Source: Gammaproteobacteria bacterium (GTDB lineage: Bacteria > Pseudomonadota > Gammaproteobacteria > Poriferisulfidales > Oxydemutatoraceae). Taken from it: a stretch of DNA of 38,075 bases. Under the pieces are notes generated by a model. That model saw only the letters and a program-made list of their open reading frames with translations. It searched no databases and was not told where the DNA came from. Position numbers and translations under genes: made by a program. Positions 1-38,075 of this stretch are shown here, piece by piece (position 1 is the first letter of the stretch; every line of letters starts with the position of its first letter). Location: assembly GCA_007570905.1 (NCBI GenBank), contig RKSI01000028.1, forward strand, positions 1 through 38,075, read 5' to 3'.

Positions 1-145
1 CCGACCACTGTTGCGTCGTCAGTTCGTTGGCCGCCTGCTCCAGTTGCAGCGGGTTGGAGCAATACGGGCATTGCAGCGGGCAGCGGTGCGTCAATTCAAA
101 CAGAATGGAGACCGGCATGCCGATGGTTTTGTCTTTTGCGCTCAT
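1..145 (-). CDS. pqqE: PqqE radical-SAM enzyme, N-terminal fragment (gene continues beyond window start)
   Basis: Reverse translation from the ATG at 143-145 gives [47 protein letters not shown]. It has the CxxxCxxC radical-SAM motif at the position typical of PqqE. The start makes an ATGA overlap with the pqqD stop, and the gene follows pqqABCD. It is not in the ORF track because it is truncated. Confidence 0.85.
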
Positions 146-414
146 ATAGAGATGAAGTCCTTGTCGGCCAGATCCTGAATCAGCGCCGTGATGTCGGCCA
201 GAATCCGCTCCTCCGGCGCATTATAGGACCTGGCGAAGGTTTGCGCGATGCTGCGAAGCGTGGTTTTGCCGTCGCAAAGGCGCAAAATGCCGAGCGCCGT
301 CTCGTCCGGCTCCAGCAGGCGCTCCGGCGCCAGCAGCACCCAGCGCTCGCGCGTCTTGTCGTGGTGCAGTTTTATATGTGCCGGCAATGACGGCATGGAC
401 TCCGCCGAAACCAT
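142..414 (-). CDS. pqqD: PqqD, PQQ precursor peptide chaperone
   Basis: This is the C-terminal part of track ORF 142..618: ...[81 protein letters not shown], typical PqqD size and pattern. It lies between pqqC and pqqE. The start is ambiguous: ATG at 414, or ATG at 396 which has GGAG upstream. Confidence 0.8.
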
Positions 415-436
415 GCGGCGTTCGCGGCTGTTTTCT

Positions 437-1183
437 TCAGCGGCCATTGGCGACAAAACAGTCCGGCGGCACGATGCGCGGATCCACATATGAAAAATAC
501 AGCGCGTCCAGTTGGCTCCACAGCACATCGCACTTGAAGCGCAACGCGGCCAGCACGCCGTGTTGCCGCTCCAGCGTGTTCGCGTTGTCAAGGACATATT
601 GCAGCGCGAAGTCCACATCGCGGCGCGCCTGCGTCAGGCGCGGCTTGAAATAGGCCATCGTCTCCTCGGTGATGAAGTCATAGCCGGCCAGCATCCCGGA
701 CATTCTCTCGGCGATGATGACGGGCGAGAAAATCTCGGTCAGCGACGACGCCACGGCGTCGAGCAACGGCATCTCCGAGACAAAATGCACATATCCGCCG
801 ACCGCGAACTTCGTCGCCGGCAGCGCGCCCTCGCGCGACATCACATAGTCGCGCTCAAGCCCCAGCCCGTCGGTGAGTTTCAGCCAGCGCTCGATGCCGC
901 CGCCGCCGTCCTCGCCGCCGTCGTGGTCGGCGATTCGCTGGCGCCACTCGCGGCGCAGCGTGTGGTCGGGAATGCGCGCCATCAGCCGCGCATCCTTGAC
1001 CGGAATCGCCGCCTGGTAGCAGTAGCGGTTCAGCGCCCACGCCTGCACCTGGCCCTTGTCCAGTTGGCCGGTGTGCAGCAGGCGGTGGAAGGGGTGCTTG
1101 TCGTGGTAGTAGTTCTCGCCGATTTCGCGCAGGCGCCGTTCCAGGTCGCCGCGGCTCAGCAAACTGCCGGGGCGCAGGTTCAC
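437..1183 (-). CDS. pqqC: PqqC, pyrroloquinoline-quinone synthase
   Basis: Track ORF 437..1312 contains YYHDKHPFHRLLHTGQLDKGQVQAWALNRYCYQ and the rest of the PqqC pattern. I place the start at GTG 1181-1183, which overlaps the pqqB stop (GTGA). This gives 248 aa, the normal PqqC size. Confidence 0.9.
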   Translation of the reverse strand: MNLRPGSLLSRGDLERRLREIGENYYHDKHPFHRLLHTGQLDKGQVQAWALNRYCYQAAIPVKDARLMARIPDHTLRREWRQRIADHDGGEDGGGGIERWLKLTDGLGLERDYVMSREGALPATKFAVGGYVHFVSEMPLLDAVASSLTEIFSPVIIAERMSGMLAGYDFITEETMAYFKPRLTQARRDVDFALQYVLDNANTLERQHGVLAALRFKCDVLWSQLDALYFSYVDPRIVPPDCFVANGR

Positions 1184-2109
1184 AGGTCTATCACCTGGCC
1201 GTCGCGCGACACCGTCCAGCCCGCCTGTTCCACTATCTTGCGCTCCGGCGAATTCTCGACCAGCACCGGATTGGTGTTGTTGATGTGAATGAAGATTTTG
1301 CGGTCTATGCACAGGTCGCGGAAAGCCGCGAGCGAGCCGTCTTCGCCGTTCATGCTGATGTGCCCCATGCGCCGGCCGGTCTTTTTGCCGACGCCCATCG
1401 TAATCATCTCGTCGTCGCGGAACAGCGTGCCGTCAAAAAACAGCAGGCCGCTGCCATCCAGGCGTTGCCGCAGCGAGTCGGTGAGGCCGGCACAGCCGGG
1501 AATGTAGTGGAACGAGGCGCCGCTCTCCGGGCTGCGGACATGCAGGCCGACGGTGTCGCCTTCCTCGGTGCCGAAATCGCCGCCGCGGCTTGCATCCTCA
1601 AGGAACAGCGCGACCTTGCCCGGCACCGCAAACGCCTCCACCTCAAGCCCGAGCGGGCGCCCGTGCGCATCTTCGGGGCGGAAAGGCGCCGACAGCGCGA
1701 TGGTGTGGCGCCGGACATACTCCGGGTTCAGCACATTGAAAATGGAATTGGTCGTGAGAATCCGGTGCACGCGGGCGGAGGCGTAGATGCTGAAAGGTTC
1801 GCTCTCACGCATCGTCAGCAGGCCGGCGATGTGGTCCACATCGCCGTTCGTCAGCACGACGGCCTTGACCGGGCTGCTGCGCAGCCCTTCGCGCGGATGC
1901 AGCGGTTCGGTCTGGTTCAACTGCTGCCGCAAATCGGGCGAGCAGTTCAGAAGCAGGTAACGGGAGCCGTCTGCGGTGACGGCGAGTGAAGACTGGGTTC
2001 TTGGGAAGGCCCGAGTACTGTCGTTTCTTGCGAGACGGCAGTACTCAGAATTGCAGTTCCATTGCGGGTACCCCCCTCCTGCCGCAGAGCCTAAAACGAT
2101 GATACGCAT
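1180..2109 (-). CDS. pqqB: PqqB (metallo-beta-lactamase fold)
   Basis: 309 aa beginning MRIIVLGSAAGGGYPQWNCNSEYC..., with VLTNGDVDHIAGL, the characteristic PqqB N-terminus. It sits between pqqA and pqqC. Confidence 0.92.
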   Translation of the reverse strand: MRIIVLGSAAGGGYPQWNCNSEYCRLARNDSTRAFPRTQSSLAVTADGSRYLLLNCSPDLRQQLNQTEPLHPREGLRSSPVKAVVLTNGDVDHIAGLLTMRESEPFSIYASARVHRILTTNSIFNVLNPEYVRRHTIALSAPFRPEDAHGRPLGLEVEAFAVPGKVALFLEDASRGGDFGTEEGDTVGLHVRSPESGASFHYIPGCAGLTDSLRQRLDGSGLLFFDGTLFRDDEMITMGVGKKTGRRMGHISMNGEDGSLAAFRDLCIDRKIFIHINNTNPVLVENSPERKIVEQAGWTVSRDGQVIDL

Positions 2110-2176
2110 TAGAGTCGGGAATCACCGCTTTATCCATGAGGCCCGGCGAACAAGAGAGAGGGACCAACAACGTTTT

Positions 2177-2193
2177 GATTACTTGCGGTAATC
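2177..2193 (-). other. Stem-loop (GATTAC-N5-GTAATC) 11 nt after the pqqA stop
   Basis: A perfect 6-bp inverted repeat is seen in the pqqA-pqqB spacer with no U-run. It is a possible transcript-stabilising or processing hairpin of the kind often found after pqqA. Confidence 0.3.
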
Positions 2194-2203
2194 AGGGCCG
2201 TAA

Positions 2204-2287
2204 TCAGGAAATTTCGGCGCAGGCATAGCAGTTGATTTCCATGCCGACGGAAATTTCTCTAATTGCGGGTGTTTTCCATTCTTTCAT
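2204..2287 (-). CDS. pqqA: PqqA, PQQ precursor peptide (27 aa)
   Basis: Hand translation gives ATG AAA GAA TGG ... TCC TGA = MKEWKTPAIREISVGMEINCYACAEIS. It has the conserved E-x-x-x-Y (EINCY) cross-linking motif and the methylotroph-like EI.VGMEv..Y..AEI pattern. An AGGAGG RBS lies 9 nt upstream, and the gene is directly upstream of pqqB. It is too short for the ORF track. Confidence 0.85.
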   Translation of the reverse strand: MKEWKTPAIREISVGMEINCYACAEIS

Positions 2288-2349
2288 CAGTAGATACCTC
2301 CTGATAGTGTTGAAATGCTAATTAGCGATTTGTGCATAAGCACAATGGC

Positions 2350-2358
2350 ATATTATCA
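2350..2358 (-). promoter_or_regulatory. Candidate extended -10 promoter element (TGaTAATAT) for pqqA
   Basis: The minus strand reads caTGaTAATATgcc about 63 nt upstream of the pqqA ATG, in an AT-rich spacer. The -35 is weak. Confidence 0.35.
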
Positions 2359-2459
2359 TGAAGACCGGCGAACAATCATTGAATTTTTCAATCTATCCGT
2401 CCGGTTTTGCGGCAGTATTATGGCAAAATAGCCTATAATATCAACCACTTGCGCCGTTT

Positions 2460-2834
2460 TCAGAAGCAGCGCACCTCGGCCTCGGCCTGCGCCGCCCGGA
2501 GTTTGTCCACCGCCTGCCGAAGCCATTCGGCGGTGCGGAACGCGGCGACGCGCTCGCCCTGCACCTGGCGCATGCGAAGCACCGTTTCCGCCTCCACATA
2601 TGCGTCGTATTTCATCTGCTCGGCAATCGCGTCTATCGTGCACGAGCATTTGTTCAGTATCTCCATGGACTGGCCGTTGGTGCTCATGCAGGCAAACACG
2701 AACTCGGCGCGCGCGCTGGTCGGAAAGTCGTTGGCGGCGGCGCCGGAAGCGGCGCACAAAAGGGCCGGCGCAAGACAGGCCGCGAGGCCCCCGTTCCGGG
2801 CGCGGAAGTTTGCGCGGCGTTTCGTTGCTTTCAT
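2460..2834 (-). CDS. Hypothetical small periplasmic Cys-containing protein (last gene of xox operon)
   Basis: The start is at MKATKRRANF..., with an AGGAGG RBS spanning the stop of the upstream gene. It has a signal peptide (LAACLAPALLCAASGAAA) and 4 Cys in the mature part. I recognise no family. Confidence 0.6.
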   Translation of the reverse strand: MKATKRRANFRARNGGLAACLAPALLCAASGAAANDFPTSARAEFVFACMSTNGQSMEILNKCSCTIDAIAEQMKYDAYVEAETVLRMRQVQGERVAAFRTAEWLRQAVDKLRAAQAEAEVRCF

Positions 2835-2835
2835 G

Positions 2836-3561
2836 TCAGCGTTCCTCCTGTGTGAGATGGCCGGAGAAGGCCGTCGGCGGCTCAATCCGGCTGAATTTCA
2901 TCTCGGTGTGTTCCAGAGCCTCGTCTTCAGGCGCGTCGCCGGGCAACCGCGTTGCAATGCTGTAAATCCCGCCGGGAATATCGTCGGCCAGCACAAACTC
3001 ATAGCGCTTGGCCGGATAACTCTTGTAGCGGTCGTCGCCCTTTTTGGAGGCGAGCGGCTCAAAAAACACCTTGTGCCCGTTGATGCGACGCCCGTCGTGG
3101 GTGAAGGTAATCTCCTCGCTTGCGGCGGCGCTCAGAAACGCCTGCTTAATCAGGTTGCGTAAGTAATGGCGGCTGATGTCGCTGTCGCGGCCCATTTTAC
3201 CCACATCCCACTCGAGGAAATACATAATCAGCGGATTGCCGTGAAAATCCTCAATGGCGTAGTTTTTGCCGTTCGCGCCGCTTAAAAACTCGGTTTCCAC
3301 ATCCTTGCCGCCGCGCTCCGTCAGGCCGGTAATCTTCAGCGTAACATGGTTTTCAATGGCCTCCGTTTGCGCGCCGCGCTGATGAAAATCATAATGCAGC
3401 GCCGCCGCAGACCGGATATTCCGGAGATGCGGCGTGTCAAACAGCAGCAGTTGCTCTTTGCTGTAACCGTCGCCGACTTCCTGCGCGGGCGCGAGCGGCG
3501 CAAGCAGCAGCGCCAGCGCGACAAGGTTCGGCAAGAGGCGCCGCTTGCCGTTCCGTTTCAT
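2836..3561 (-). CDS. Hypothetical secreted protein (241 aa), xox operon
   Basis: It has a signal peptide MKRNGKRRLLPNLVALALLLAPLAPAQE and a GGAGG RBS. Its start makes an ATGA overlap with the stop of the upstream CXXCW gene. The family is not recognised. Confidence 0.65.
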   Translation of the reverse strand: MKRNGKRRLLPNLVALALLLAPLAPAQEVGDGYSKEQLLLFDTPHLRNIRSAAALHYDFHQRGAQTEAIENHVTLKITGLTERGGKDVETEFLSGANGKNYAIEDFHGNPLIMYFLEWDVGKMGRDSDISRHYLRNLIKQAFLSAAASEEITFTHDGRRINGHKVFFEPLASKKGDDRYKSYPAKRYEFVLADDIPGGIYSIATRLPGDAPEDEALEHTEMKFSRIEPPTAFSGHLTQEER

Positions 3562-4145
3562 CGCTGTTCCTCCATCAATTCCGGGAATTCCGGCGGCATC
3601 TTCACAACCTTGCCGACGGCCAGTTCATGCCCCGCCTCTTTCCACTCATCCACGCCGCCGGGAAACCAGTGGACATTGCGAAAGCCGTACTCCATCGCCC
3701 TTTTCGCCGCGTTCCATGACATCCAGCAGTTGGCGTCGCAGTAGAAGACCAGAATCCGCCCTTCGCGGTGGGTCGTCAGCATCTCCAGGTTGTCCATGAA
3801 ATAGCGCTCGCGGGCGTCCGAGATGCGGCCATAACCGACATTCGGCAGCCACACGCTGCCCGGCAGGTTGTGGCGCGTAGGCGGGCGCCACAGGCGGTCG
3901 GCGGGAAAGTCGGGGGGTTTGCGGTCGCGCGGCAGCACATCAATCAGCGCGACATCCATGTTGCCGTCGTTTGCAAGCAGCGCGTGCAGCGCCGCGGCGT
4001 TGAGCACGGTCGCGCCTTTCAGCGTTGCCGGCACCGGCGCGCGGTAATCGCTCATGCGGTAGTCCCGCGGCTCGGCGACAACGCCGGACGCAACCGCCGG
4101 CGGCGCCAGCACCGCGCTTGCGGCAAGCAGCAGCGAGAGCATCAT
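3558..4145 (-). CDS. PQQ-dependent catabolism-associated CXXCW-motif (rhodanese-like) periplasmic protein
   Basis: The start is at MMLSLLLAASAVLAPPAVA (signal peptide), in an ATGA overlap with the xoxJ stop. The motif ILVFYCDANCWMSW matches the CXXCW family found next to quinoprotein dehydrogenases. Confidence 0.75.
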   Translation of the reverse strand: MMLSLLLAASAVLAPPAVASGVVAEPRDYRMSDYRAPVPATLKGATVLNAAALHALLANDGNMDVALIDVLPRDRKPPDFPADRLWRPPTRHNLPGSVWLPNVGYGRISDARERYFMDNLEMLTTHREGRILVFYCDANCWMSWNAAKRAMEYGFRNVHWFPGGVDEWKEAGHELAVGKVVKMPPEFPELMEEQR

Positions 4146-4960
4146 CTTTCCGCCACCAGCGGCACGCCGTATTCGCGCAACAGCGCGTCCAGTTTGTCCC
4201 GGTTCTTGCGTATGAAGCGGTTGAGTTGGCGCTTCCATTTAATTTCATTCGGGCGCACGCCCATCGTAATCCGGTAAATCATGCGGTGCTTTTCCGAGTG
4301 GTCGGCGACCAGCGGCGCCACCTTCAGGCGCGAGTCGTGCCGCTTGTTCAGGTAGCCCGCAATAGGCCCCCACAGGACGGCCACATCCAGTTTGCCGGCC
4401 AGCAGGTCCTTCACAATCTGCTCCGAAGGCGAATCAACCCGGGTGTCCACGACCAGATGGTAGGAGGCGACCTGCTCCATCAAGTCGTTTTCAAGCAGCA
4501 GGCTCGTCGGCGGCGTCCCGGCAATCAGGCCGATTCGCAATTTCGCGTCTTTCAGTTTCGGGTCCGACAGCGAGGCCGGTTTGTGGCCGGCGTCGGCGGG
4601 ATAGACCAGCGCAAATGCCGACGAGTAATACGGGTTGGTGTTCAGCAGCAGTTCGTTGGCCGCCGAGATGCCGACGACAAGATCGCAGCGCCTCGCGCTC
4701 AATGTCGTTCGCACAAAGCCCATGCTTTGCGGAAACCAGTAGTAGGAAAGCGGAATGCCGAGATCCGCGGCGATGAGTTCGGCGATTTTGTTCTCAAACC
4801 CCGTTTGCGCCCTGTTTGAGTAGGGCATATTGTTCGGGTCCGCGCAAACGCGCAGGACAGTTCGTTTTGCTACTTCGGTGCCGCCATCAGCGGCAAACAG
4901 CGCTTGCGGGCTGCAAACAAGGATTGCGGCAGCGGCGGCAAGCAGGCGCGCTCCGTTCAT
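4142..4960 (-). CDS. xoxJ: XoxJ/MxaJ-type periplasmic binding protein (quinoprotein dehydrogenase-associated SBP)
   Basis: 272 aa with a signal peptide. The pattern LRVCADPNNMPYSN...GFENKIAELIAADLG is the family-3 SBP fold typical of MxaJ/XoxJ. It makes an ATGA overlap with the xoxG stop. Confidence 0.8.
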   Translation of the reverse strand: MNGARLLAAAAAILVCSPQALFAADGGTEVAKRTVLRVCADPNNMPYSNRAQTGFENKIAELIAADLGIPLSYYWFPQSMGFVRTTLSARRCDLVVGISAANELLLNTNPYYSSAFALVYPADAGHKPASLSDPKLKDAKLRIGLIAGTPPTSLLLENDLMEQVASYHLVVDTRVDSPSEQIVKDLLAGKLDVAVLWGPIAGYLNKRHDSRLKVAPLVADHSEKHRMIYRITMGVRPNEIKWKRQLNRFIRKNRDKLDALLREYGVPLVAER

Positions 4961-5469
4961 AAATCGCCGAAGCAGGCTTTTTCATTCTCTGCCGCTTCCG
5001 GCGGCTTGCCCGTGTGCTTCGGACGATCCATGCCGATGGCGCCGTCGGCCCTTGCGACCAGGTAGGTGTAAATGTCGTCCACAAAACACATAACATTGAG
5101 ATTGGTTGCAAACCCCGGCATCACATTCTGCGTGGCCGCGTCCACATTGACCCGGCCATTGACGACCACTTCCAGATATTGTTCATAACTCAGGCGCTTG
5201 ATGGACTCCAGCAGGTTGGGCGCGAAAGAACTGCCCAGCCCGCCAGGCCCGTGACAAACATGGCATTCGGAATGGTAGCGGCGGTAGCCGCTGAATGTCG
5301 GCCAGTTCACCTTGCCGTCGGCGTTCACCTTGTATGGCTTTTCGCCTTCCGCGGCAAAGGCGCCTGGCGCCGCCAGGCAGGCCGCGAAGGCCGCCGTCAG
5401 CAACACGCCAAACCGGTGGCGAGATAAAAGAGCCCGGCAAACCGGGCGTTGTTGAGTTGTCGCCGGCAC
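4957..5469 (-). CDS. xoxG: XoxG / PedF-type c-type cytochrome (electron acceptor of XoxF)
   Basis: It has a signal peptide and a single CHVCH heme-binding motif, is about 170 aa, and lies between xoxF and xoxJ. The start is GTG at 5467-5469 (longest ORF). Confidence 0.8.
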   Translation of the reverse strand: MPATTQQRPVCRALLSRHRFGVLLTAAFAACLAAPGAFAAEGEKPYKVNADGKVNWPTFSGYRRYHSECHVCHGPGGLGSSFAPNLLESIKRLSYEQYLEVVVNGRVNVDAATQNVMPGFATNLNVMCFVDDIYTYLVARADGAIGMDRPKHTGKPPEAAENEKACFGDL

Positions 5470-5497
5470 CGCGTTTGTCCCGAAAAATCCTGTCCTG

Positions 5498-5538
5498 AAA
5501 AAAATCCGGCCCCCGAACCGGACGGTGCGGGGGCCGGA
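5498..5538 (-). terminator. Intrinsic terminator/attenuator between xoxF and xoxG
   Basis: A perfect 11-bp GC stem (TCCGGCCCCCG / CGGGGGCCGGA, 12-nt loop) is followed on the minus strand by U7. It lies 17 nt after the xoxF stop. Confidence 0.7.
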
Positions 5539-5554
5539 CCAAACAACATCGAAG

Positions 5555-7363
5555 TTACAGGGTAAAGACCGTCAGGCCGCCACCCAGCCGGGTGTAGTTC
5601 TGCAGGTGGCGGTAGCCGCCTACAGCGCCCAACCCGTCACGATCGCCGGTCAGACCAGCGGCCATGCCGATACCGGCCCAGCCGCCAATGCCCGAATAAA
5701 CGGCCACATGCTGCTTGCCTTTGTGCATGTAGGTCATGACATTGCCGATGATGCCGGAAGGCGTCTTGAACTTGAACAGTTCTTCGCCGCTCTTGGCATC
5801 CACCGCTTTCAGGTAGCCCTCAAGCGTGCCGTAGAAGACCACATCGCCGGCGGTCGCCAGCGCGCCGCTCCAGACGGAGAACTTCTCGTCAATCGCCCAC
5901 ACTTCCTTGCCCTTGTCGGCATCCCAGGCGATGAACCGGCCCATATGGGGGCCGCGGTCCGTGCCGCCCGGGCGCGTCGGCGCCGGGAACATGTCGAGGT
6001 TCGCTCCAACATATGGCTGACCCACCGTGTAGCTGACCTTGAAAGGCTCATAGTTCATGCAGACATGGTTTGTCGGCACATAAAACAGCCTCGTCCGCGG
6101 TGAAAAAGCCGCCGGCTGCTGGTCTTTTGTTCCCAGCGCCGCCGGGCAGATGTCCTTTGAAAGCACATCTTCGCCGTTGTACTCGGTGCGGTACTTGTTC
6201 ACCATGTTCGGACGGCCGGTTTTCATGTCGATGTCCGTCGCCCAGTTGACCACATCGTCGAATTTCTCGGCGACCAGCAGTTCGCCGTTCACACGATCCA
6301 TGGTGTAGGCGAAGCCGTTGCGGTCAAAGTGCACCAGCACCTTGCGGGTCTGGCCCTTGACCGGGATGTCGGCGAGTATCATCTCGTTGATGCCGTCGTA
6401 ATCCCACTCGTCGTGAGGCGTCATCTGATAGACCCATTTGGCCATGCCGGTGTCGGCGTCACGCGCGAAAATGGTCATCGACCAGCGGTTGTCGCCGGGG
6501 CGCTGAACCGGGTTCCATGTGCTCGGGTTGCCCGTGCCGTAATAAACCAGGTTCAGGTCGGGGTCGTAGGAAAACCAGCCCCAGGTTGTGCCGCCGCCGA
6601 TTTTCCACTGATCCCCTTTCCAGGTGTTGGTGCCGGAATCCTTGCCGACCGGCTCGCCGAGATGAGTGGTCTTCTTCGGATCAATCAAGGTGTCGGAATC
6701 GGGACCCATTGAATAACCGCGCCAGACCCGCTTGCCGGTCTTGGTGTTGTAGGCGGTCAAATGTCCGCGAACGCCGAATTCACCGCCGCTGATGCCGACA
6801 TAGACCTTGTCCTTGACGACCATCGGCGCCGCGGTTCCGGTCTGGCCCTTGGCGATGTCGCCATTCTTGGCGCTCCAGACTTTCTTGCCGGTCTTGGCGT
6901 CCAGCGCAACCAGCGTCGTGTCGGCCTGATACAGGAAAATCTTGCCGTCGGCGTAGGCGACGCCGCGGTTGACGGTGTCACAGCACATCACCGGAATCGT
7001 CGCCGGATCCTGTTGCGGCTTGTATTCCCAGACGATGCCCGCGTCTTTGTCCAAATCGAGCGCATACACGATGTTGGGGAACGGCGTATGAACATACATC
7101 ATGTTGCCGACAACCAGCGGGTTGCCTTCGTGCCCGCGCAGAACGCCGGTCGAGAAAGTCCATGCAACCTTCAGGTCCTTGGCATTCTTTGAGGTGATTT
7201 GCTTCAGTTCCGAATAACGGTGGTTGGCGTAGTTTCCGGTCGGCATCACCCACTGATTGGCGTCATCCGACATCCTCATCAGTTTGGTGTTTGCATGCAG
7301 ACTGGAAGCTCCGGCCAGAGCGACCGCTACCGCAACCAAGGCAATAGTTCGTCTCCCTTTCAT
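5555..7363 (-). CDS. xoxF: XoxF-type lanthanide-dependent PQQ methanol dehydrogenase
   Basis: Track ORF 5555..7495 is trimmed to [21 protein letters not shown] (signal peptide, GGAGG RBS). It shows the MDH N-terminus [19 protein letters not shown], the vicinal disulfide [11 protein letters not shown], and [11 protein letters not shown]. That last block has the D-x-D feature: the extra Asp two residues after the catalytic Asp is diagnostic of lanthanide-binding XoxF/PedH rather than MxaF (D-x-A). Confidence 0.92.
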
Positions 7364-7552
7364 TCCATAGTCCTCCAATGTGTTGGGGTTTTGTTTTTTT
7401 ACGGGTTGCCGGGCGGCAACCGATATGTCTATTCTTACATAAATAGCCAATAAGATATACGAAATTTTCAATCGGATTGTTCGTACATTCGGCAAAAGGC
7501 ATGTTTCCTTGATTTAACGGCAATTTTTGCCAAATCCGGCCCACGCAAGACC

Positions 7553-11885: not shown

Positions 11886-12492
11886 ACAGACGGTGTCGGC
11901 ATATGTAGTTCCAGACCGCGCCCGGCAGCAGGTAGCGCGGCTGCTCGCGCCGCCCGATCATCGCGCGGATGGCGCCGGACGACGCGGCAAACTGGCGGTT
12001 GTGCGCGCGGTACGCGCAACCGGCGGGGCTGGCCGCAAGCGCCGCCAAATCTTCGGTGCGCCGCCACGCCGCCGGCAACTGGCAGTCGCCGCAATCCGGG
12101 CGCGCCAGCACAATCAGGTGGGCCAGCGCCGGCAGGCGCGCGGCGCACTTCCAGGTGTGCATCTTCGCCGCCGTGTCCTGGCCGGCGACAAACGCAATCG
12201 GCTGTTCGCCGCCGACCTCGTCGCGCAACCGCCCAAGCGTGTCCGCGGTGTATGACACGCCGTCGTGCTCCAGTTCGCGGCCATCCACGACCAGGCCGGC
12301 GCCGGCGACCAGTTCCAGCATTTGCAGCCGGTGGCGCGCGCCGGCGCCGGCCTCGCCCTTGTCCGGATGGACGCGGCACGGCATCAGCCGCACCTGCGAG
12401 ATTTGCGGGCGCGCCAGCAGTTCAAGGGCGGGCTTGATGTGGCCGAAGTGAACCGGGTCAAAGACTCCCCCCATGACCGCAATCACCGGCAA
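11857..12492 (-). CDS. nadD: Nicotinate-nucleotide adenylyltransferase
   Basis: The N-terminal GGVFDPVHFGHI is the (H/T)xGH nucleotidyltransferase motif. The gene lies in holA-nadD-rsfS synteny. Confidence 0.88.
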   Translation of the reverse strand: MPVIAVMGGVFDPVHFGHIKPALELLARPQISQVRLMPCRVHPDKGEAGAGARHRLQMLELVAGAGLVVDGRELEHDGVSYTADTLGRLRDEVGGEQPIAFVAGQDTAAKMHTWKCAARLPALAHLIVLARPDCGDCQLPAAWRRTEDLAALAASPAGCAYRAHNRQFAASSGAIRAMIGRREQPRYLLPGAVWNYICRHRLYGWNEPRDV

Positions 12493-24195: not shown

Positions 24196-24385
24196 TGCGC
24201 GCCCATTATATGCGCCGCGCCCGCGTCGCGCACACCGGCGGGCAAAAAGGCGCGGTCAGCCGGACGCCGGCGGCGGCGGCGGCCCGGCCTGCGGCGGCTG
24301 ACACTGGAGACCGCCCGGCGGAATGCAGCAACCGTCCGGCGGCAGCGGCTGGTCAGCCGCGCCGGCCGGCGCGCCGCATTCGGGC

Positions 24386-24412
24386 AAAAAAGAGACCGCG
24401 AATCGCGGCCTC
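24386..24412 (-). terminator. Rho-independent terminator of the NHLP-type precursor gene
   Basis: The minus-strand RNA GAGGCCGCG-AUU-CGCGGUCUC forms a 9-bp stem (one G-U pair) followed by U6. It starts 29 nt after the TAG stop. Confidence 0.75.
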
Positions 24413-24440
24413 GTGAAAGAAATACATCCGGCGCGGCGCG

Positions 24441-24959
24441 CTAACTGGCGTGCCCCACCGTGACTTCCTGGTCGCCGGCGAAATGCCCAAGCCCGGCTGC
24501 GATGCCGACGCCGACGCCCGTGCCGACAGCGGCCACGGTGGCCGTCAAGCCGACGACGGTGGCGGCGCCGATGGCGACCGCCACGGTATTGGCAAGCGCC
24601 CCGGCCTTGACCGAGCCGATGAAGATGGTCGCCGTGACGACCCCGATGACCGAAAGAGCACAGGTAATCTCGAAAGCGCCTCCGCTGATTTTGGCCAACT
24701 GCTCATCCGTCAGGTTTTCCCCGAGATGCTCGAGAACGGAATAATCCGGCACGCAAATGTGCATCACATCCGCGGTGTTCTGCTCCGCCCTGACAGCGAT
24801 GTCGTCGCCGATGGACAAACCTTCCGGCAAACAGGAAATCACAGCCGCCTTCGCGTCATCGCGCATCGCCGCCATGAATTCCCCGTTGTTCACGCAACGC
24901 GCCGCCAGATGAATGGAAACCAGTTCATTAAGCGCCGCGATGGTATTGTCTTGTTGCAT
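24441..24959 (-). CDS. NHLP-like leader / double-glycine bacteriocin-RiPP precursor with 78-aa Gly/Ala/Val-rich hydrophobic core
   Basis: 172 aa. Residues 1-94 resemble the nitrile-hydratase-like leader peptide domain (EFMAAMRDDAKAAV...IAVRAEQNTADVMHICVP) and end in LTDEQLAKISGG. Residues 95-172 (24444-24677) form a glycine-zipper-rich hydrophobic peptide. The gene has an AGAGAGG RBS and its own promoter and terminator. Confidence 0.75.
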   Translation of the reverse strand: MQQDNTIAALNELVSIHLAARCVNNGEFMAAMRDDAKAAVISCLPEGLSIGDDIAVRAEQNTADVMHICVPDYSVLEHLGENLTDEQLAKISGGAFEITCALSVIGVVTATIFIGSVKAGALANTVAVAIGAATVVGLTATVAAVGTGVGVGIAAGLGHFAGDQEVTVGHAS

Positions 24960-25027
24960 ATTCGCGATTACCTCTCTGTGTAAGTCCCGATTGGTTTGAT
25001 TCCGGACCCGTGCCGGAATGCAAAGAC

Positions 25028-25056
25028 AATATAGCCCCTGCCCCTCTCCTGTTCAA
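25028..25056 (-). promoter_or_regulatory. Candidate sigma70 promoter TTGAAC-17-TATATT for the precursor gene
   Basis: On the minus strand, TTGAAC lies at 25051-25056 and TATATT at 25028-25033, with an exact 17-nt spacer. This implies a ~60-nt 5' UTR containing a 7-bp hairpin ATTCCGG-N7-CCGGAAT (24999-25019). Confidence 0.5.
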
Positions 25057-25115
25057 CCCCGCCCCCGGTTCAATCACTTGTGGCAGCGCGCTTCTGCTAT
25101 GATAGGCCGCGAAAA

Positions 25116-25346
25116 ATGGAACTTCAGGACATTGTCAGCGCAGGCGCCGTCGTCTTCTACAACCGGGAAACCGACATCCTGGTGGCGTGGGACGGCGGCA
25201 TTGAATTCCCGGTTTATGCCGGCAAATTCAACGGCGACTACGACCAGATTGACGCCTTCTACAAGGAGGTGCGTTCGGTCGCCGCCGCCGCCAAAGCCGC
25301 CGAAATGTGGTTCCAGGAACACGCAACCTTCAACCCCGGCCCGTGA
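25116..25346 (+). CDS. Hypothetical small soluble protein (76 aa)
   Basis: [52 protein letters not shown]... shows strong GC3 codon bias consistent with coding, but has no clear SD. It is divergent from the precursor gene and lies 23 nt upstream of fabI. The family is not recognised. Confidence 0.5.
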
Positions 25347-37148: not shown

Positions 37149-37436
37149 ATGTCCAGAAACAAGACCTTCACCTCGACGCTCGCCGGAGTCCTGGCGCTCG
37201 GCGCGGGCGCTTTCGCCACCCAGGCGGCGGCGGTTCCCGACGCGCCGAAGATGTGGGAGAAATGCGCCGGCATCGCCAAGAAAGGCATGAACGACTGCGG
37301 CTCGCTTGACGGCAAGCACGGCTGCGCCGGGCAGGCCGCGATGGACAACGACAAAAACGAGTGGGTCTATGTGCCCGAAGGCACCTGCGCGAAAATCGCC
37401 GGGGGCGAGGTCGTCGCGACCAGGCCGGCGAAGTAA
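37149..37436 (+). CDS. DUF2282-type Sec-exported four-Cys peptide (bufferin/HvfA-like RiPP precursor)
   Basis: A strong RBS AAAGGAG precedes the start. It has a signal peptide [28 protein letters not shown]. The mature domain carries Cys in EKCAG, NDCGS, HGCAG and EGTCAK contexts plus [11 protein letters not shown], the DUF2282 pattern. A DUF692 gene follows directly. Confidence 0.8.
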
Positions 37437-37445
37437 TTCGCTCGC

Positions 37446-37483
37446 GGCCCGGGCGCCCTCGCCTTGCGGCGGCGCCGCGGGCC
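37446..37483 (+). promoter_or_regulatory. GC-rich stem-loop between precursor and enzyme genes (possible attenuator/processing site)
   Basis: GGCCCGGGCGCC (37446-37457) pairs with GGCGCCGCGGGCC (37471-37483), with a one-base bulge and a 13-nt loop. There is no U-run. Confidence 0.4.
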
Positions 37484-37499
37484 AATCCGGCATCCGGCA

Positions 37500-38075
37500 T
37501 TGAAAGGGGAAATTAACGGCGTCGGCATCGGCCTGCGCTCGCCTCATGTCGCCGAGATTGCGCGCGGGCGGCGCGATGTCGGCTGGCTGGAAATTCTGGC
37601 AGACAACTATCTCGCGGAAGGCGGGCGCTGCCGCCGCGACCTTGAAAGGGTGCGCGAAAACCACGCCTGCACCTTCCACTGCGTCGGCATGTCGGTCGGT
37701 TCCGCCGACGAACTCAACGACGGCTATCTCGGCCAGATCAAGGAGTTGGCCGACCGCTACCAGCCGGCGTGGGTCTCCGACCACCTGTGCTTTGTGTCGG
37801 CGTGCGGCGAGTACCAGCACGACCTGCTGCCGCTGCCGCGCACCGAAGAGGCGGTGCGCCACGCCGCCGAACGCATCGGGCGGATACAGGAACGCCTGCG
37901 GCGGCGCATACTGATAGAGAACATCTCGTGCTATCTGGATTTCGGCCACTCAATGATGAGCGAGGCGGAATTCGTCAACGCCGTTTGCGAGCGCGCCGAC
38001 TGCGGCCTGCTGCTGGACATCAACAACCTTTATGTCAACCAGGTCAATCTCGGCGCCGACGCGCGCGATTTTCTG
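37500..38075 (+). CDS. DUF692/UPF0276 family enzyme (MbnB/HvfB-like multinuclear non-heme iron oxidase), 5' part, runs off window
   Basis: Hand translation of the frame containing 37518 gives (TTG)KGEINGVGIGLRSPHVAEIARGRRDVGWLEILADNYL...TFHCVGMSVGSADEL...PAWVSDHLCF...HDLLPLPRTEEAV...RILIENISCYLDF...CGLLLDINNLYVNQVNLGADARDFL. The frame has no stop to the window end, so it is absent from the track. The start is assumed to be TTG at 37500, which is uncertain. Confidence 0.85.
   Translation, partial: MKGEINGVGIGLRSPHVAEIARGRRDVGWLEILADNYLAEGGRCRRDLERVRENHACTFHCVGMSVGSADELNDGYLGQIKELADRYQPAWVSDHLCFVSACGEYQHDLLPLPRTEEAVRHAAERIGRIQERLRRRILIENISCYLDFGHSMMSEAEFVNAVCERADCGLLLDINNLYVNQVNLGADARDFL

Follow-up and report, generated by a model that had tools for sequence, protein, structure and literature searches.

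Background

Bacterial peptide precursors with a double-glycine export site have been described in several forms. In this paper we compare them with one gene, found on the reverse strand at 24441-24959 of a 38,075-nucleotide stretch of DNA from a Gammaproteobacteria bacterium (contig RKSI01000028.1, assembly GCA_007570905.1; this whole stretch is called the window). A sequence-only reading had described its 172-aa product as a nitrile-hydratase-like leader peptide (NHLP) joined through a double-glycine site to an unusually long glycine-zipper core. Profile matches place the gene within the NHLP clan, in a sizeable subfamily that is unannotated and whose members share a long, conserved glycine-zipper core. 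We rate the chances as about even that it encodes a double-glycine secreted-peptide precursor of this clan, whose product would be exported by a distally encoded C39-peptidase transporter and would probably be an unmodified, membrane-active peptide. The parts of the gene that carry the argument are:

24441-24959, reverse strand: precursor coding sequence, 172 aa plus stop codon, from the open reading frame (ORF) and its translation as read from the sequence
24678-24959, reverse strand: NHLP-type leader, residues 1-94, 10.0 kDa, pI 4.3, from profile homology and an AlphaFold2 (AF2) model
24678-24713, reverse strand: LxxxxL helix and double-glycine cleavage motif LTDEQLAKISGG, residues 83-94, from homologue conservation and the family logo
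24444-24677, reverse strand: predicted mature core, residues 95-172, 78 aa, 7221 Da, pI 5.3, grand average of hydropathy 1.29
24480-24524, reverse strand: family-conserved double glycine-zipper motif G-T-G-V-G-V-G-I-A-A-G-L-G-H-F, residues 146-160
24444-24479, reverse strand: polar C-terminal tail AGDQEVTVGHAS with the subfamily motif V-x-V-G-H/L-A-S, from homologue conservation

NHLP precursors and proteusins (TIGR03793; solved examples are 8TB1, MprE7, and 9CJX, DprE2) share with this protein an acidic leader of about 90 aa that resembles nitrile hydratase alpha and has a tri-helical N-terminal fold, and an LxxxxL helix at positions -12 to -7 that is followed by GG. Their precursors may also sit far from processing genes and occur in multiple copies per genome. 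The window protein differs in scoring below the TIGR03793 trusted cut-off and in its core, which at 78 aa is rich in Gly, Ala, Val and Ile, almost free of Cys and carries a conserved family motif, whereas NHLP cores are short, hypervariable and rich in Cys, Ser and Thr. Compared with the proteusins of the polytheonamide, aeronamide and landornamide type, the leader agrees but no radical-SAM epimerase or other tailoring gene lies adjacent, and no YcaO, LanM, radical-SAM or halogenase gene was found nearby in the contexts that we examined.

The published description of Cdz-like peptides asks for 60-151 residues, a leader ending in Gly followed by Gly, Ala or Ser, one or two zippers bounded by Pro or charged residues, and a short C-terminus that is polar or charged (PMC5380434). 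The Cdz proteins themselves have a short leader, and their genes lie beside cdzAB, which encode a type I secretion system (T1SS), and the immunity gene cdzI (Garcia-Bayona 2017, PMC5380434). Three of these four peptide features are found here, namely the GG at residues 93-94, zippers between K118 and D163, and the tail GDQEVTVGHAS; the likeness to CdzC and CdzD is judged here by these published criteria (PMC5380434). The precursor is too long at 172 aa because its leader, a folded NHLP domain, takes up 94 aa; the predicted mature part has 78 aa. A hydrophobic, aggregation-prone character and an expected type I export with a C39 peptidase are further points in common, but neither a CdzAB-type T1SS nor a multi-pass immunity protein is encoded in the window.

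Class II microcins (such as colicin V, MccE492, MccH47 and MccL) are likewise below 10 kDa (7.2 kDa here), anionic, hydrophobic, Gly-rich and processed at a double glycine, and the class IIb members share the presence of a conserved C-terminal module. Their leaders are only 15-19 aa long, against 94 folded residues here, and their genes cluster with those for a peptidase-containing ATP-binding cassette (ABC) transporter (PCAT), a membrane fusion protein and immunity, which is not the case in the window. No Pfam or NCBIfam microcin model matches the protein, and its VxVGHAS ending is unlike the Ser-rich siderophore-attachment tail of these microcins. The class IIb bacteriocins lactobin A and cerein 7B have a double-glycine leader followed by a Gly/Ala-rich helix as well. 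Their model TIGR03949 matches residues 82-121 at E=2e-4 with 21.0 bits, just under its cut-off of 21.5, and it also matches seven of the eight close homologues (best E=7e-5). Beyond the junction, however, this match extends over no more than the first 27 core residues, and the known members are two-peptide bacteriocins of Gram positive bacteria with short leaders and cores of about 30-40 aa. Finally, prochlorosin-type precursors (N11P) resemble our case in the LxxxxL-GG motif and in having many paralogous orphan precursors scattered in the genome, and precursors remote from the genes for their modification and export are on record (Haft 2010, PMC2887384), but they carry a Nif11 leader in place of NHLP and their cores are hypervariable, Cys/Ser/Thr-rich lanthipeptide substrates.

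By analogy, the closest functional counterparts would be the Cdz-like glycine-zipper bacteriocins, with class II microcins and the lactobin/cerein type also close. The precursor is set apart from all of them by its folded 94-aa NHLP leader and by the complete lack of linked export and immunity genes.

The double-glycine junction and an unnamed family

The ORF at 24441-24959 translates exactly as it had been quoted, and the double-glycine site can be read directly from it. LTDEQLAKISGG has Leu at -12 and -7, Ile at -4 and Gly at -2 and -1, and it is invariant in eight close homologues, down to 38% identity. Relatives numbered only 9 in a word-indexed search. When 1.84 billion cluster representatives (at 50% identity) were searched exhaustively with a HMMER profile, 165 proteins were recovered at E<=1e-3, 50 of them at E<=1e-10. 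Most have 120-210 aa and align across both leader and core.

We built a junction logo from 157 of these 165 representatives. It reads L-12 (109 sequences), S/T-11, D-10 (110), E-9, Q/E-8, L-7 (106), I/V-4 (144), S/A-3, G-2 (139) and G-1 (all 157); the residue after GG is Glu in 100 of the 157, followed by Ile, Phe or Val. The logo holds although the sequences are otherwise only about 25-35% identical, and nowhere else in the protein is this very divergent family so well conserved as at the junction. Homologues lacking a conserved GG junction had been named beforehand as evidence that would speak against cleavage, and the opposite was observed. The position of LTDEQLAKISGG also agrees with helix alpha-4 of a solved proteusin leader (PMC10858898). 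Such conservation is expected of a C39-peptidase recognition element (Haft 2010, PMC2887384; LahT work as cited in PMC10858898).

Among the 157 sequences the leader has a median of 93 aa and the core a median of 66 aa (range 19-102). The cores are composed of 22% Ala, 19% Gly, 14% Val and 10% Ile, with 1.3% Asn and 0.5% Cys, and 116 of them contain no Cys at all. The broad alignment shows a conserved core motif, G148 x G150 V151 G152 I153 A154 A155 G156 x G158 A, then Phe, Ile or Leu, to which the subfamily of the window protein adds a polar tail ending in V-x-V-G-H/L-A-S. The sequence-only reading had called the core much longer than known NHLP cores and the architecture one not known to it as a described system. 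The core is indeed 2-3 times as long as known proteusin cores, but long cores are the rule in this family. As for the architecture, we found no paper that combines NHLP with glycine zippers, and a literature search on NHLP leaders, glycine-rich cores and PCATs returned nothing describing it; it is not singular, however, since 165 representatives share it.

No Pfam domain is found in the family members, and the few that were named at their source are called 'hypothetical protein'. Among the matches listed for GTDB representative genomes, alignment A1 gave no relative and alignment A3 gave one, a Porisulfidus metagenome-assembled genome (MAG). A metagenome scan with the junction pattern found four loci, with no close family member among them. 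One of these, L028 (2422-6263), encodes a 147-aa NHLP-type precursor that bears a GG site; behind it come three ORFs (253, 472 and 419 aa) which, judged from their translations alone, are candidates for oxygenase-like, TfuA-like and YcaO-like proteins. This locus would represent a different, enzyme-linked branch of the NHLP clan.

The leader

The leader is acidic, with 15 Asp/Glu against 5 Lys/Arg. An hmmsearch against TIGR03793, the NHLP leader model of NCBIfam, had been suggested as a check, and it gives a match over residues 17-94 (model positions 8-77 of 77) at E=5e-5, with 23.1 bits against a curated cut-off of 50.9. The homology is thus seen, but below the level at which the model assigns membership. 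All eight close homologues match the model in the same sub-threshold way, as do 29 of 51 broad family members (best E=2.5e-10), and four family members match TIGR01323 (nitrile_alph). Against Pfam the window protein has no match even at E<=10.

Stronger evidence comes from searching all PDB sequences with the family profile (alignment A2, 51 members). The best match is 8TB1_A (E=1.9e-9), whose entry reads 'NHLP leader peptide family natural product'. Nitrile hydratase alpha subunits follow at 2.6e-6 (1V29) to 1e-3, and 9CJX, another NHLP leader, is matched at 1.8e-3. These matches support the NHLP-type leader of the sequence-only reading; it is a true homologue of NHLP leaders and nitrile hydratase alpha, and a divergent member of the NHLP clan.

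In the AF2 model the leader is predicted with a pLDDT (predicted local distance difference test) of 81-96 at residues 11-70, as a three-helix bundle (residues 11-24, 26-34 and 36-43), a non-helical stretch containing Pro, and a helix at L83-L88. The proteusin leader MprE7, as solved in solution, consists of three bundled helices, two strands, a Pro-rich region and a helix alpha-4, which bears LxxxxL at -12 to -7, then four residues and GG (PMC10858898); the predicted layout agrees with it. A Foldseek search of PDB with the leader-only model ranked 8TB1 first, but this match is not significant (E=1.7, TM-score 0.32-0.37), and for this reason the homology claim rests on the sequence profiles. 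Foldseek with the full model against PDB was uninformative.

The core peptide

We reproduced the reported count of 44 Gly, Ala and Val among the 78 core residues, and the single Cys; the core further contains 1 Lys, 3 Ser and 9 Thr but no Arg. Three segments, at about 96-116, 121-141 and 142-160, are hydrophobic, and long helices are predicted at 96-116 and 122-157 by hydropathy and by an AF2 model whose confidence in the core is low (pLDDT <50). The near absence of Lys and Arg is atypical of a resident polytopic membrane protein.

Within the zipper motif two faces of small residues are interleaved on a helix, G148-G152-G156 and G146-G150-A154-G158. In the single sequence the excess of such patterns, on which the earlier claim of a glycine zipper had relied, is modest: small-xxx-small-xxx-small occurs 10 times against 5.0 in composition-matched shuffles (P=0.026) and GxxxG 4 times against 1.9 (P=0.09). 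At the family level a double zipper is clearly conserved. G150, V151, G152, A154, G158 and F160 are invariant in the subfamily alignment A3, and in the broad alignment A2 Gly is kept at 148 in 38 of 51 sequences, at 152 in 41, at 156 in 36 and at 158 in 45. The C-terminal tail motif is retained down to homologues of about 30% identity, and among the 157 family sequences 14 cores end in HAS and 7 in LAS.

Being poor in Cys and rich in Gly, Ala, Val and Ile, both in the window protein and across the family, the core is not a typical thiazole or lanthionine substrate, as had been argued before. We also considered Cys100 as a modification site and find it unlikely, because this residue is conserved only in close homologues and most family cores have no Cys.

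Genomic context

Pfam scans of the credible ORFs show the window to be ordinary chromosome; lon, clpX, clpP and tig were assigned via the 99%-identical contig L007. In order, it encodes pqqDCB; a PQQ-dependent dehydrogenase with a cytochrome c and an SBP_3 protein; YhdP, RsfS, NadD and ProA; the DNA polymerase III delta subunit, an RNase T-family exonuclease, a methyltransferase and a four-gene peptide ABC importer; the precursor; a 76-aa ORF and fabI; an SDF symporter, PpiD and HU; Lon, ClpX, ClpP and trigger factor; and a bufferin locus (BufA1 and an MbnB-like enzyme). The family HMM finds a single member among all window ORFs, the precursor itself.

Orthologues with 71-78% identity (P0003-P0007) occupy the identical genomic position. 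In all nine contexts, the window and eight others, family members are orphans or form tandem arrays among housekeeping genes, and neither an NHLM transport gene (TIGR03794 HlyD, TIGR03796 or TIGR03797 ABC) nor one for a modifying enzyme was found with any of them. Across the 12 contigs that we looked up no PCAT lies next to a family member, one of these contigs (P0050) being only 1.3 kb long. The orphan status is therefore a property of the whole family and not of this locus.

Several relatives carry more than one copy. The Porisulfidus MAG OY843752.1 has five, three of them in a tandem duplication. At this locus (L008, 8100-11800) the three tandem paralogues are separated by duplicated 101-aa 3' fragments of an upstream hexapeptide-repeat (gamma-carbonic-anhydrase-like) gene, which indicates recent segmental amplification; the two further paralogues lie at 433-885 and 1522-2010. 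Three tandem copies are found on a sponge-metagenome contig and five on one further contig, and one family locus and the near-identical contig L007 stem from a single JGI sample series. Two loci belong to the gammaproteobacterial MAG OXU34. Relatives of the window organism probably carry several scattered paralogues, because the OXU34 paralogues (MDD9807561 and MDD9807590) share an accession block with a Lon (MDD9807245) and an SDF symporter (MDD9807242) that are at least 90% identical to their window counterparts, and because the tetranucleotide usage of the paralogue contigs matches that of the window (r=0.98-0.99, as close as known relatives); this is soft evidence. In L015-L017 and L019-L021 a gene for a 393-aa AAA_16/AAA_22 ATPase is found directly upstream of P0159 and about 4 kb from P0071, which probably reflects conserved synteny rather than a functional link.

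A presence/absence cassette with its own expression signals

The precursor gene had been described as a self-contained unit with its own promoter and terminator and without partner genes in the window, and this description stands. A consensus scan recovered both signals, and an alignment with a relative that lacks the gene delimits the unit:

24244-25088, reverse strand: 845-bp presence/absence cassette of promoter, precursor gene, terminator and a spacer of about 150 bp, from the alignment with L022
25028-25056, reverse strand: sigma-70-like promoter TTGAAC-17-TATATT, from the consensus scan, with -35 and -10 kept in relatives
24999-25019, reverse strand: 5'-UTR stem-loop ATTCCGG-N7-CCGGAAT with a 7-bp stem, seen in the sequence
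24971-24976, reverse strand: Shine-Dalgarno-like GAGAGG, 11 nt before the ATG, from the sequence and kept in L001, L002 and L004
24386-24412, reverse strand: intrinsic terminator with a 9-pair stem (7 GC pairs, one G.T), a 3-nt loop and T6, from the consensus scan

The scan gave 2 promoter-like sites where 0.2 are expected from shuffles, and it placed the terminator at 24392-24412. The -10 and the -35 (TTGACG in relatives), the 5'-UTR hairpin and the terminator are all kept in the filled loci L001, L002 and L004, and in L001 the hairpin has a compensatory change from T-A to C-G. Rfam has no match to this stem-loop and nothing credible anywhere in the cassette. GAGAGG is present as reported, but calling the ribosome-binding site good was generous because its 11-nt spacing to the ATG is rather long. 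The codon-position GC of the precursor (GC1 0.64, GC2 0.45, GC3 0.76; contig GC 65%) is coding-like, as in a real gene.

In the empty-site relative L022, 9 bp (12385-12393) stand in place of 24244-25088 in a global alignment, with flanks at 91-94% nucleotide identity and neighbours at 87-97% aa identity. MAGs of the sister lineage, for example GCA_028816675.1, have the same gene order without the precursor, which is therefore dispensable. Neither a target-site duplication, terminal inverted repeats, a tRNA nor an integrase was seen at the cassette ends. The sole feature there is a 10-bp direct repeat, TTTTTGCCCG, that bounds the GC-rich spacer (24244-24392, reverse strand) between the terminator and the importer promoter. 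In L001 this spacer is missing and the terminator abuts the importer promoter.

The neighbours had been correctly named as a peptide importer and fabI. We rejected a functional link of the precursor to the SBP_5/YejA-like importer, to fabI or to the 76-aa ORF, as the sister-lineage MAGs keep all of these without the precursor and the neighbours are thus irrelevant to its function. A link to the importer is also countered by the precursor's terminator, which stands between the two genes, and by the TATAAT box that the downstream SBP_5 gene has of its own. The 76-aa ORF (25116-25346, forward strand) encodes a conserved soluble protein with no Pfam match directly upstream of fabI; it lies outside the cassette, since relatives with and without the precursor have it at 88-92% identity.

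Selection

We compared the window with L001, L002 and L004. Intact in-frame orthologues exist in at least four lineages that are 0.2-0.37 apart in dS. The dN/dS of the precursor is about 0.5-0.65 overall and 0.67-0.80 in the core, against 0.09-0.37 for its neighbours at similar dS, and its dN is 3-10 times that of the neighbours. For the whole gene pN/pS is 0.57-0.70 and significantly below 1 (Fisher p 0.002-0.04). For the leader it is 0.45-0.58, significantly so in two of three comparisons, and for the core 0.72-0.84, not significantly below 1 among close relatives (p=0.12-0.27). The leader is therefore under purifying selection, while the core is relaxed or diversifying; constraint on the core may simply be relaxed. 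Precursors of bacteriocins and RiPPs (ribosomally synthesised and post-translationally modified peptides) typically combine a variable core with a conserved leader, and a constrained leader and junction combined with a fast core argue against a pseudogene.

Proposed mechanism and alternatives

If the gene encodes a secreted-peptide precursor, as we favour, we would expect it to be transcribed as a single gene from its own promoter. In the 172-aa product, the acidic leader, folded as a three-helix bundle with a Pro-containing linker and the LxxxxL helix, would serve to solubilise the extremely hydrophobic core and to keep it from acting while in the cytoplasm. A distally encoded C39-peptidase ABC transporter of the NHLM/PCAT type, with a HlyD/TolC-like partner, would recognise LxxxxL-x4-GG, cleave after Gly94 and export a 78-residue, 7.2-kDa peptide starting with AFEITC. 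This peptide, probably not heavily modified, might insert into membranes and self-associate through the conserved double glycine zipper. Like class II microcins or Cdz proteins, it would then either form a pore or depolarise membranes, or else aggregate on the cell surface. We infer the exporter, the cleavage, the lack of modification and the membrane or antibacterial activity from the features described above. NHLP and N11P precursors are known to be found in multiple copies, far from modification and export genes and with a distal exporter (Haft 2010, PMC2887384). The multi-copy tandem arrays and scattered paralogues in other genomes follow the same pattern, and the consistent orphan status is compatible with a distal exporter without demonstrating it (PMC2887384).

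Several of our observations weigh against this proposal. The matches to TIGR03793 and TIGR03949 both lie below their cut-offs, the structural match of the leader to 8TB1 is not significant, and the core model has low confidence. The core is not significantly constrained among close relatives, and the gene is absent from a sister lineage that is equally close. Pfam scans of the ORFs uphold the earlier observation that no C39 ABC transporter, HlyD, LanM or YcaO/cyclodehydratase is encoded in the 38-kb window, nor is there a candidate for membrane immunity, and in the eight other contexts no C39 transporter, HlyD or immunity-like gene was found within about 10 kb or up to the contig end. The immunity gene of a bacteriocin toxin is normally adjacent. 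Its absence beside every member weakens a strictly bacteriocin reading.

The lack of modification is the step that an unlikely alternative would replace. The core, rich in Gly, Ala, Val and Thr, could be a proteusin-like RiPP substrate that is extensively modified by distally encoded enzymes before the leader is removed, for example by radical-SAM epimerisation and C- or N-methylation as in pore formers of the polytheonamide and aeronamide type. The leader is of the NHLP/proteusin type and its best PDB match is a proteusin precursor. Some family members come from sponge-associated metagenomes or MAGs, and sponges are a habitat of known proteusin producers. Polytheonamide cores are also rich in Gly, Val, Ala and Thr and form membrane channels. 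NHLP precursors far from their modification genes are on record too (Haft 2010, PMC2887384). However, no RiPP-type radical-SAM, YcaO, LanM or methyltransferase gene is found beside a member in any of the nine contexts, and the window's sole RiPP enzyme, which is MbnB-like, has a BufA1 precursor of its own as partner. The family cores are also 2-3 times longer than those of known proteusins and poor in Asn and Cys, and they show a conserved alpha-helical i/i+4 glycine-zipper pattern rather than hypervariability.

Quite unlikely, in our view, is that cleavage does not take place and the protein is a small membrane protein with a housekeeping or regulatory role, its NHLP-like domain staying in the cytoplasm and its C-terminus forming an anchor of two or three helices. 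The long helices predicted in the core, the conservation of the core motif, and the constant position of family members amid housekeeping genes without transport or immunity partners would all suit such a protein. But its strongest conservation would then fall on a C39-type motif, with G-1 in 157 and G-2 in 139 of 157 sequences, for which there is no obvious rationale if the protein is uncleaved. The core has almost no Lys or Arg to follow the positive-inside rule, and a gene that is dispensable, fast-evolving and elsewhere amplified in tandem is typical of secreted effectors and not of membrane proteins with a housekeeping role. That the gene is a decaying or functionless relic, drifting under weak constraint after the loss of an exporter and modification cluster, is improbable: its dN/dS is elevated over that of its neighbours, the pN/pS of its core is not significantly below 1, it is cleanly absent from the sister-lineage MAGs and no partner gene lies nearby, but an in-frame ORF with promoter, ribosome-binding site, hairpin and terminator is kept in at least four lineages, both the leader and the gene as a whole show significant purifying selection, and the junction and C-terminal motifs persist at a family identity of only about 25-35%.

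NHLP leaders have been studied as platforms for RiPP tailoring enzymes, and here one is paired with a long hydrophobic core that is poor in modifiable residues. If the peptide is secreted as we favour, the conserved, modification-poor core and the lack of an adjacent enzyme would extend NHLP biology towards peptides of the class II bacteriocin and Cdz-like kind. With at least 165 clusters at 50% identity, the family would then amount to a large unannotated source of candidate membrane-active peptides in uncultured Gram negative lineages. The family would also be a clean test case for the role of a folded 10-kDa leader when there is nothing to modify, and the presence/absence cassette with its fast core a tractable marker of strain-level antagonism or host interaction. 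The interest would be modest if the peptide is not exported.

A wider and more doubtful idea is that these proteins form a widespread, unrecognised class of type-I-secreted peptides, mainly in uncultured and in part sponge-associated Gammaproteobacteria. The folded NHLP domain might then serve as an intramolecular solubility chaperone or antitoxin instead of a docking site for tailoring enzymes, and the product, unmodified and 60-100 aa long, might form pores or aggregates by means of several glycine-zipper helices. Such peptides could be produced without immunity from scattered, mobile single-gene cassettes that share one distal C39 exporter, and the C-terminal module G-x-G-V-G-I-A-A-G-x-G-A-F ... 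V-x-V-G-H-A-S might specify oligomerisation or target recognition.

Other loci in the window

At the right end of the window (37149-38075, forward strand) we found a bufferin-type RiPP locus that is unrelated to the NHLP gene and that the sequence-only reading does not mention. It consists of a BufA1/DUF2282 precursor gene (37149-37436; PF10048, E=2.5e-23) and a gene for an MbnB/TglH/ChrH-family enzyme (37518-38075, cut by the window end; PF05114, E=1.3e-70), and the same pair adjoins trigger factor in the relatives L024-L027. At the other end, a pyrroloquinoline quinone (PQQ) cluster spans 142-7495 on the reverse strand. It includes pqqD (142-618), pqqC (437-1312) and pqqB (1180-2109), an SBP_3 protein (4142-4960), a c-type cytochrome (4957-5469) and a PQQ-dependent dehydrogenase of the alcohol/methanol type (5555-7495), a gene content that suggests a XoxF/MxaF-like module.

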